64,000 nt of DNA from Octopus vulgaris (lineage: Eukaryota). The DNA lies in contig OX597814.1 of the NCBI GenBank assembly GCA_951406725.2, positions 59,644,001 to 59,708,000 of the forward strand, read 5' to 3'. The stretch's first letter is position 1. Every line of letters starts with the position of its first letter. The translations under genes and the position numbers were made by a program. The notes beneath the pieces were generated by a model. It had not been told where the DNA came from, ran no database searches, and worked only from the letters and a program-made list of their open reading frames with translations. Below are positions 58,602 through 60,150 of this stretch, one piece after another.

Positions 58602-58615
58602 ATTATTATTATCAT

Positions 58616-58690
58616 TCAGGTCACTGCCTGAAGCGAACTCAGAATCTTAGGGCTAGTAGCCCGCGCACTTAACCACTATGCCCGTGGGGA
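58616..58690 (-). mobile_element. Short tRNA-like (Pol III A/B-box) head with (TAA)n tail
   Basis: Minus strand gggcatagtggttaagtgcgcgggctactagccctaagattctgagttcgcttcaggcagtgacctg followed by aatgataataataat; not a complete cloverleaf. Confidence 0.6.
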
Positions 58691-58832
58691 TATAATAATA
58701 ATAATAATAATAATAATAATAATAATAATAATAATAATAATAATAATAATAATAATAATAATAATAATAATAATTATAATGATAATAATAATAATAATAA
58801 TAATAATAGTAATAATAATAATAATAATGGCT

Positions 58833-59628
58833 AATGGCCTCTGGCTTAAAATCTGAAACAGAGGGGTTTATCATAGCAGCTCAAGATCAATGTCTACCAA
58901 CAAGAAACTACCAGGCCAACATATTAAAGATCAGAAGCAGTCCAACGTGTCGTGTATGCAAGCAACAAAATGAAACCATTGACCATGTGGTCTCCAAGTG
59001 CAGTCTTCTAGCGCCTACAGAGTATCTCAACAGACACGATAGAGCTGCACAATATATTCACTGGGTAATCTGTAAAAACCTGGATTTGCCCCATGAAAAA
59101 AACAGACATCATATTGAAAGACTTCAAACAAAGAACATGCCTCCTCATTGATATGACTGTCCCAATCGATATAAACGTATCTGTCAAGACCTACCAAAAA
59201 CTGAGCAAATATAAAGATCTTGAAGTAGAAATCATCAAAATGTGGAAGCTGAAGACTTAAACAATACCTGTTGTCATAGGTGCCCTGGGAATGATAGCAA
59301 AAGGGGCTGATAGCTACCTAACTCAGATACCAGGAAACCCAAAAATGGTAGAAGTTCAAAAGATAGTGCTCATGGGAACTGCTCATATCCTACGCAAAAT
59401 ACTCTCTATGTAATCTCAAGGTTTAAAACAAACATAATTTTCGGTTTAAAAAGAAAAAAAAAAAAAAACTTTTTTTTTAGACATTCATTAGTACAACATC
59501 CCCACCCCCCAAATATATGGCACACTAGGCATAACAACAACATGAACTTCCAACCCTGTTGTCTCTTGAGGTCTCTGGGTGAGACTTGGAGCCAACTTGT
59601 ACAAATATAAAGCAAAAGTCAAACATAG
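58833..59628 (+). mobile_element. 5'-truncated R4/Dong-clade LINE (second subfamily) in (TAA)n
   Basis: SGLKSETEGFIIAAQDQCLPTRNY, CRVC...ETIDHVVSKC...RHD, deletion, LIDMTVP...KLSKYKDLEVE...GTAHILRKILSM*; 3' UTR ends in (TAA)n. Confidence 0.9.
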
Positions 59629-59669
59629 AATAATAATAATAATAATAATAATAATAATAATAATAATGA

Positions 59670-59903
59670 TAGGCATGATAAAAAAATATTCAGACAAATA
59701 CATAACAAAAACACCAGGACTTACAAACACATATAACATACAGAAAATTGCACTACTAGGCACTGCCCACATCCTACGCAGAACACTTTCCATACAATAA
59801 CCATCAGAGCATCACAACAAATCACAGCACATACCCAAGGCACACAGAGCTGCGCTCGGTAGTGAAGTGAAAGCACGCTATAAAAATAAAAATAAAACTA
59901 CTG
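59670..59903 (+). mobile_element. R4/Dong LINE 3' end, same subfamily as 15663-17660
   Basis: GMIKKYSDKYITKTPGLTNTYNIQKIALLGTAHILRRTLSIQ* and the 3' UTR are nearly identical to the reverse complement of 15663-15885; flanked by (TAA)n. Confidence 0.92.
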
Positions 59904-60007
59904 AATAATAATAATAATAATAATAATAATAATAATAATAATAATAATAATAATTATAATAATAATAATAATAATAATAATAATAATAATAATAATAATA
60001 ATAATAA

Positions 60008-60150
60008 CATCGAATGAGAACCCAGGTTCGAAATTTCCCCAAGACACCTGATGAAGGCTGGAGAGTATATCAGCCGAAATTTTGTGTTAACAACAAACAA
60101 GAAGAGGACAAATATCAGTCAGCTATAAATAATGTAAATAATATGCATAA
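60008..60150 (+). mobile_element. Third copy of the hammerhead-bearing pLTR-type sequence; cleavage site mutated
   Basis: gacac-CUGAUGA(60048)-a-GGCUG..CAGCC-GAAA-UUUU-guguu; homologous to the 41.7-42.0 kb arms and directly follows (TAA)n. Confidence 0.78.

Follow-up and report, generated by a model that had tools for sequence, protein, structure and literature searches.

Within a window of 64,000 nucleotides of Octopus vulgaris DNA (the whole stretch analysed, positions 59,644,001 to 59,708,000 of contig OX597814.1), a tRNA-like head, an (AAT)n spacer and a hammerhead-bearing tail make up a composite repeat that, judging from its sequence, almost certainly is the pseudo-LTR (pLTR) of an ORF-bearing Penelope/Poseidon-type element, since the head follows the ORF stop and the tail codes for the ORF N-terminus. 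The locus at 58602..60150 is probably a foldback insertion of this pLTR, whose short RNAs are likely started by RNA polymerase III (Pol III) at the head and likely copied by the element's own RT/GIY-YIG protein.

All pieces that a sequence-only reading had listed at this locus, i.e. the ATT tract, the head with A and B boxes, the hinge, two LINE 3' ends and the hammerhead, are present in the sequence (Table 1). The head points left and the hammerhead right, and the two lie on opposite arms of one foldback, not on one strand: the minus arm carries the head, the plus arm skips it. The near-palindromic hinge is real; its GCCC-AC-GGGC is the 5' edge proper to the family where this meets an AAT tract, with the same junction layout at locus L030. 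Likewise, an "atcgaa" reported at 41817-41830 exists and merely represents tail positions 4-9, just after which the tail copy at 60 kb has a 14-column alignment gap. This copy is 85-86% identical to both arms (41682-41967) of another foldback in the window. No minus-strand tail match was detected near 57-58 kb of the window, leaving the left arm without its expected tail. We infer an order of events in which the foldback would have come first, the two REL-type LINE ends would have entered its plus-arm spacer as later, TAA-targeting guests, and the left tail would have been lost.

Table 1. Parts of the composite locus and of the related foldback, in window coordinates
Feature	Position	Strand	Remarks
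Remnant (AAT)n spacer of the left inverted arm (ATT tract)	58602..58616	minus	abuts an unrelated hammerhead foldback
tRNA-Arg-like (provisional) head of the pLTR	58617..58688	minus	box A ~58673-58683, box B ~58630-58638
Junction of the arms, where the head's native 5' edge (family position ~-5) meets the plus-arm AAT tract	58680..58689
Right-arm (AAT)n spacer, first part	~58690..58828	plus
5'-truncated REL-endonuclease LINE 3' end, Dong/R4-like by motifs, then (AAT)n	58829..59628	plus	broken frame
(AAT)n array separating the two LINE ends	59629-59671
Second 5'-truncated LINE end, Dong/R4-like by motifs	59672..59903	plus	96% to the copy at 15666-15885
Right-arm (AAT)n spacer, last part	59904..60007	plus	the (AAT)n array itself spans 59880-60007
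pLTR tail, N-terminal coding part of the Penelope-type ORF	60005..60150	plus	putative ATG at 60014
Minimal type I hammerhead motif (predicted)	60043..60088	plus	helix I 60043-47 with 60084-88; core 60048-60079
Second foldback of the same Penelope family	41670..41970		both arms cut within the tail

The neighbourhood contains further repeats. A second foldback at 58200-58601 belongs to an unrelated, abundant hammerhead family (2384 candidates, 84-88% identity) and has its hammerhead core at 58307-58276 on the minus strand; its right arm breaks off shortly before the arm's own core and borders on the ATT tract, possibly through a shared deletion, and no ORF was found within 1.5 kb upstream at 11 loci of that family. 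A direct repeat of ~80 nt (57548-57630 and 57900-57985) flanks a possible hammerhead-like motif (57782-57806) and looks like another pLTR-type tandem. An Rfam match to MIR447 at 41729-41918 was rejected, as it lies below the gathering score and reflects the foldback.

The sequence-only reading had joined tRNA head, (TAA)n and hammerhead into one composite, to be given up if head and hammerhead proved unlinked elsewhere; we checked this, and the linkage holds genome-wide. A head search gave 937 first-look candidates, of which 40 were scored, and at 26 of the 29 other head loci an (AAT)n spacer separates the head from a tail that follows it in the same orientation. The reciprocal tail search recovered the head-tail pair in 22/29 loci. 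In a position-ordered sample of 29 insertions, for which an exact 27-mer of the head was the sole selection criterion, 24 heads had a downstream tail on the same strand, and in two of the five without one the head is followed by a LINE. A random sample (120 stretches of 10 kb at round coordinates, 1.2 Mb) held 23 family loci, i.e. ~19 per Mb or an estimated total of roughly 5x10^4, and none of these 23 formed a head-to-tail tandem array, the arrangement being solo or inverted. Most copies are solo pLTRs whose first nucleotides are those of the head edge; an inverted arm is frequent among them, and the median identity of copies to the majority sequence is 93-95%. Moreover, pieces of the head, the tail and the ORF end occur in run contigs of the organisms labelled B, C, D and E, and among the contigs listed the ORF-head junction is bridged in all four.

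Separate insertion events in a single TAA array, one by an unrelated tRNA SINE and one by a hammerhead pLTR, would fit the opposite orientation of window head and hammerhead, the absence of the head's own tail, and the commonness of (AAT)6+ tracts (150 in 1.2 Mb). Yet 24/29 and 26/29 heads are followed by a tail although only 23 family loci occur per 1.2 Mb, and L030 has the identical junction, so that we give this explanation next to no probability; for the family as a whole it is already contradicted by the sequences. In its short form the linked unit (~300-330 nt, with a colinear tRNA-Arg head bearing A and B boxes) has the head of a SINE. Ohshima and Okada reportedly described tRNA-Arg-related octopus SINEs in 1994 (OK, OR1 and OR2, 10^4-10^5 copies), and the short form found here could be one of them.

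The parent element became visible at L039, where a tail is joined head-to-head to an RT fragment. With this fragment as query, a head was found ~900-940 nt downstream in 23/29 RT loci (among which L108 and L117 look like a segmental duplicate), and five of the six RT loci lacking a downstream head have an inverted tail arm. The ORF ends with a GIY-YIG-type domain and a stop, followed after ~23 nt by the head. At the other end, the 5'-most ORF piece as query showed an ORF immediately preceded by a same-strand tail in 8/29 5'-end loci, as in a partially tandem pLTR, and the head is kept at only one of these 29, L341. There, the tail reads in frame through the hammerhead into the ORF, with 41% identity to residues 18-246 of the homologue P0007, to which the ORF gives a continuous match over residues 18-846; window positions 60014-60160 match the same P0007 residues more weakly (pairwise E 4e-5). 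The hammerhead "tail" is thus the first ~55 codons of a Penelope-type ORF. The hammerhead motif is in frame in 1 of 42 long homologues, and the tail-encoded start codon is only putative because the ORF of most others begins downstream of this point. The complete unit reads head, (AAT)n, ORF start with minimal hammerhead, RT, GIY-YIG, stop, ~23 nt, head, (AAT)n, tail, although all copies among the loci examined are broken and none is intact. A GIY-YIG/RT Penelope sharing the hammerhead tail, of the kind that the sequence-only reading had suggested looking for, was found in this way, in broken copies. The separate SINE-like parasite of Penelope elements envisaged there gives way to the pLTR of the ORF-bearing family itself.

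Motifs recognised by eye in the ORF include DKG, YVDD and a GIY-YIG-type domain with two Cys, and the architecture is that of a single ORF with RT and then a C-terminal GIY-YIG with CCHH. The CX2-5CxxC finger before GIY-YIG, whose absence separates such elements from Neptune/Nematis, was not seen by eye. Pfam RVT_1 scored 29.5 on the ORF piece against a cut-off of 29.6 (E 7e-7) and GIY-YIG (PF01541) gave no match on it, while some of the 273 ORF homologues at E<=1e-20 carry PF01541. A genome search with the Pfam GIY-YIG model retrieved mostly Neptune-like PLEs, and none of 30 loci shared the tail. These include (L067, L072 and others) a Neptune-like family with many 781-aa open frames of equal scores, apparently recently active, with no hammerhead pattern in the 800 nt after GIY-YIG. 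As a further observation, ORF-bearing tails in the 3' arms of L092-L120 often have small internal deletions (69-95% alignment identity), and the inverted arms of those loci are mostly cleaner.

A different origin would be a separate tRNA-headed SINE that borrowed a Penelope 3' end, with the ORF-linked copies as later chimeras behind an ORF stop. Free copies do far outnumber ORF-linked ones (27/29), and a decayed inverted head upstream of the ORF-side junction resembles a foldback insertion scar. On the other hand, free and ORF-linked heads have a common majority, only 2 of 75 sites differing at uncorrected p<0.05 and both stemming from the query's own variants, which have only five exact matches; moreover, the tail is the ORF's own N-terminus. 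Such a separate lineage seems very unlikely to us, and, as it concerns origin, it is partly compatible with the pLTR reading. Nor does the unit show the partner LINE and simple-repeat tail of a SINE, its 3' part being a PLE ORF start and its microsatellite internal (for the definition of tRNA-derived SINEs, see SINEBase, PMC3531059). At L103 and other ORF-linked loci, the sequence 16 nt upstream of the head, between it and the stop codon, resembles a decayed inverted copy of the head start. This stop-to-head sequence suggests that the head was captured through a foldback-type insertion.

The head was called as a tRNA neither by ARAGORN nor by Rfam. The family-majority head aligns colinearly and end to end, and best of all tRNAs compared, to host tRNA-Arg (TCG, TCT; z 7.7-8.5), and "Arg-like" is only provisional because the comparison set, 35 distinct tRNA sequences from fetched loci, is without many isotypes. 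Both A and B boxes are present in the family majority. The window copy has a 6-nt deletion in box A and one change in box B and is probably promoter-dead; a window-type head subfamily was rejected, with five exact matches against 1275 for the majority motif. Mismatch rates of 3.0% in box A and 3.8% in box B compare with 4.9% at other head sites, a weak difference. Among the loci inspected, L246 contains a tRNA-Cys gene cluster with variant anticodons ACA and ACT, and the flanks of L048, L096 and L100 contain at least two other abundant tRNA-type SINE-like repeats in or beside AAT spacers.

Insertion as a foldback, also proposed from the sequence alone, was borne out, and its geometry is that of Penelope. 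In 50 of 60 diverging tail pairs from fetched loci, one end lies at >=177 and the other at <=166 (P 8e-8); tail ends have modes at ~150 and 185, one arm carrying ~35 extra nt. The same long/short asymmetry occurs at the 41.7 kb locus, where the minus arm extends further 3' than the plus arm, and the tail at 60 kb belongs to the short class, ending at tail position ~160. An inverted, 5'-truncated arm together with a 30-40 bp tail on one end is what was found here, and PLEs are described with a 30-40 bp tail at one end and an inverted 5' copy (PMC8557442), Penelope with a 34-bp repeat (PMC2377424). One exact snap-back hinge has 441 matches genome-wide, or ~330 loci after correction for double counting (25 of the first 100 rows were second matches of the symmetric hinge), compared with 339 exact matches for the ORF-linked junction. 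As a possible mechanism, RT would run off the RNA 5' end at about -6/-7, and the cDNA end would fold back on GCCC/GGGC or jump elsewhere in the unit, creating the inverted arm. At L320:1847-1866 and L323:1740 (oriented), a mid-ORF fragment is joined straight to the head start, as if RT had jumped from the 5' end of a short RNA onto a long one. Some templates reach beyond the head, because L347 has ORF 3' sequence upstream of its 5' tail.

The 5' ends of insertions are remarkably uniform. Of 40 insertions that reach the first 15 nt of the head, 35 end at -9..+15, where 0.11 would be expected from the upstream truncation rate, with 27/29 in the position-ordered sample and 8/11 in the random sample, a count that leaves out two insertions ending deeper inside the head. 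The five that pass the edge stop at about -19, -41, -47, -494 and -518. This edge lies 13 nt upstream of box A, and Pol III initiates about 13 nt upstream of box A. The clustering of ends at this distance places the putative RNA 5' end at the head edge and makes a Pol III start at the captured head likely. Short RNAs would then begin at the head by Pol III, and the RT and GIY-YIG protein of the element itself would copy them back.

The same pLTR might also operate without Pol III, if long Pol II transcripts made RT stall at their junction hairpin or tRNA-like fold, or if an internal Pol II promoter were used at the same place; the head would then be a passive SINE fossil in the 3' UTR. The ORF-side junction does fold into a hairpin (predicted -13.3 kcal/mol) that could stall RT, the sequence upstream looks like a decayed inverted head start, and Penelope of D. 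virilis is described with a TATA-less internal promoter in its pLTR (PMC2377424). RNA-seq, too, yielded no Pol III transcript: three runs of one study, ~6% of each run read and from a library ill-suited to short Pol III RNA, contained no discrete transcript and no RNA start or end peaks. Both strands were equal, read depth changed threefold at the head, 81-83% of reads continued into unlike flanks, and loose read ends at -7 with foldback sequence were listed for two of the three runs. This signal is read-through of embedded copies, which mirrors the genomic pattern and is uninformative about Pol III. Stalling on long templates, however, conflicts with the fetched loci, where snap-backs number 29 at -7 and none at -14, after the longer hairpin, i.e. 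where that of the long template closes. Ends at -7..-3 are also present in copies joined there to a tail or to unrelated flanking sequence, and the edge coincides with the Pol III start position upstream of box A. A mechanism without Pol III is therefore unlikely in our view.

Ribozyme processing, as suggested by the sequence-only reading, is not supported for the short RNAs because few ends lie at the predicted cut, copies pass it, and monomeric minimal hammerheads are reported not to cleave (PMC4209133). The majority hammerhead has the core, an extra nucleotide before helix II and a palindromic ACGT, and is predicted to be of the minimal type I (motif definition in PMC4209133) that is known from pLTRs. 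Rfam hammerhead models did not match the window hammerhead, and energy folding of monomer or dimer gave no clean catalytic fold. The predicted cut in the window copy falls at 60083/60084, and the self-complementary ACGT of the family reads ATTT there, so dimer helix III is predicted to be broken. Near the predicted cut (positions 90-99), only 5 of 239 tail pieces start and 2 end, and copies run 60-95 nt past it; ribozyme-defined unit ends were rejected for want of a pile-up. Minimal hammerheads are described as not cleaving as monomers and as having low activity as dimers (PMC4209133), and a single one would leave the 3' end of a short RNA intact.

Beyond the short RNAs, the protein-coding Penelope might be transcribed entirely by Pol III from the captured tRNA promoter in the upstream pLTR, a tentative idea that we consider rather doubtful. 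The majority unit contains no T4 run in the 2558 nt from tail start to the next head (P 0.01 by base shuffle, 0.03 by synonymous shuffle and 0.09 under a first-order Markov model), and G4 runs are absent likewise. Real copies have 18 T4+ runs versus 78.5 expected and no T5+ run versus 17.3 expected in 37.7 kb of related sequence, and all eight other RT ORFs compared have 1-7 T4 runs each. This suggestive scarcity is compatible with Pol III read-through and is no proof of it. Under such transcription, the (AAT)n tract would, speculatively, serve as a cap-independent leader, whether an RNA is used as mRNA or as template would be switched by the in-frame hammerhead, and every solo pLTR would be a ready-made SINE.

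The internal TAA tract was also predicted to be a landing site for LINEs, and this held. With the three LINE pieces of the window as probes, 7 of 114 heads have a same-strand LINE match within 1.2 kb (~1.5 expected, P 0.001), and opposite-strand matches at that distance occur at 0/114. In the random sample, which contains 150 (AAT)6+ tracts, all 27 such LINE loci lie away from the family, so the element is one landing site among many. The LINE at 58829-59628 matches zf-RVT (E 4e-6); its REL-like motif was recognised by eye, and no Pfam match was obtained for this motif of the guests. Dong is known to target (TAA)n (PMC7998251), and the guests appear Dong/R4-like, a clade assignment drawn from motifs and AAT flanks. 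Elsewhere in the window, a REL-type LINE on the minus strand (15666-17659) has a 461-aa RT frame between AAT/TTA arrays; it is young, because 98-99% matches exist elsewhere (L300, L314).

As described in the sources, Penelope/Poseidon PLEs (e.g. D. virilis Penelope; PMC8557442, PMC2377424, PMC4209133) have, as here, one ORF with RT and then GIY-YIG, a partial-tandem pLTR with an inverted 5'-truncated arm and a 30-40 bp tail on one end, a minimal hammerhead in the pLTR, and a transcript start inside the upstream pLTR to which the start proposed here can be likened. In contrast, the pLTR described here begins with a head that has tRNA-like A and B boxes and is followed by an (AAT)n leader, while the Penelope promoter is given as TATA-less and having a DPE; truncation of the 5' ends is not variable here, as they gather at a single point, and the hammerhead lies inside the reading frame, unlike in the Penelope PLEs described. 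Schistosoma Sm-alpha/Sj-alpha (PMC6765202) likewise combine a Pol III-type promoter with a following hammerhead in a short dispersed repeat, but are presented as ribozyme-cut tandem repeats with no named autonomous partner, while our family has an inverted layout, a minimal hammerhead and copies running past the cut, and belongs to a PLE with an ORF. Animal non-LTR retrozymes (PMC7761336; bioRxiv 10.64898/2026.07.22.740005) and non-autonomous Chlamys such as MRC1 are also short non-coding PLE-pLTR derivatives with a type I hammerhead; the retrozymes are defined by head-to-tail tandem units and circular RNA, and tandem units were not found among the 23 random loci. Neither "tRNA" nor "polymerase III" occurs in the main text of bioRxiv 10.64898/2026.07.22.740005. 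Finally, TRIMp3 elements (Cassandra, Helenus, Ajax; PMC10886601) share a small-RNA-derived Pol III promoter inside the terminal repeat, proposed there to come from a SINE insertion. They are described as non-autonomous LTR elements with PBS, PPT and TSDs whose autonomous partners are expected to use Pol II, whereas here the ORF-bearing element itself carries the head.

Already known are therefore the combination of Pol III promoter and hammerhead (Sm-alpha), non-autonomous pLTR derivatives, and tRNA/5S promoters in terminal repeats (TRIMp3), and the short form may already be catalogued. New relative to the literature searched is a tRNA-type promoter head in a Penelope pLTR, which was not found in the papers covered; these also include PMC13282606, PMC6962438, PMC8969392, PMC4758252 and PMC5786205, as far as their accessible text goes, with Repbase, Dfam and the 1994 octopus SINE paper outside this scope.

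SINEs are defined as passengers of LINEs, but the SINE-like family described here, with ~5x10^4 loci, forms the terminal repeat of a Penelope element; annotators would split this family into "SINE", simple repeat and "Penelope". This offers a direct route for SINE birth and ties the tRNA-promoter-plus-hammerhead design of Schistosoma to PLE machinery. Further, the fixed 5' end and thousands of snap-back hinges represent a natural experiment on the formation of the inverted arms and 30-40 bp tails of PLEs, the origin of which Craig et al. leave unsettled (PMC8557442). If the whole-unit reading were true, an autonomous retroelement and its SINE would reside in one sequence, and a full ORF made by Pol III would be an unusual protein-coding transcript of this polymerase.
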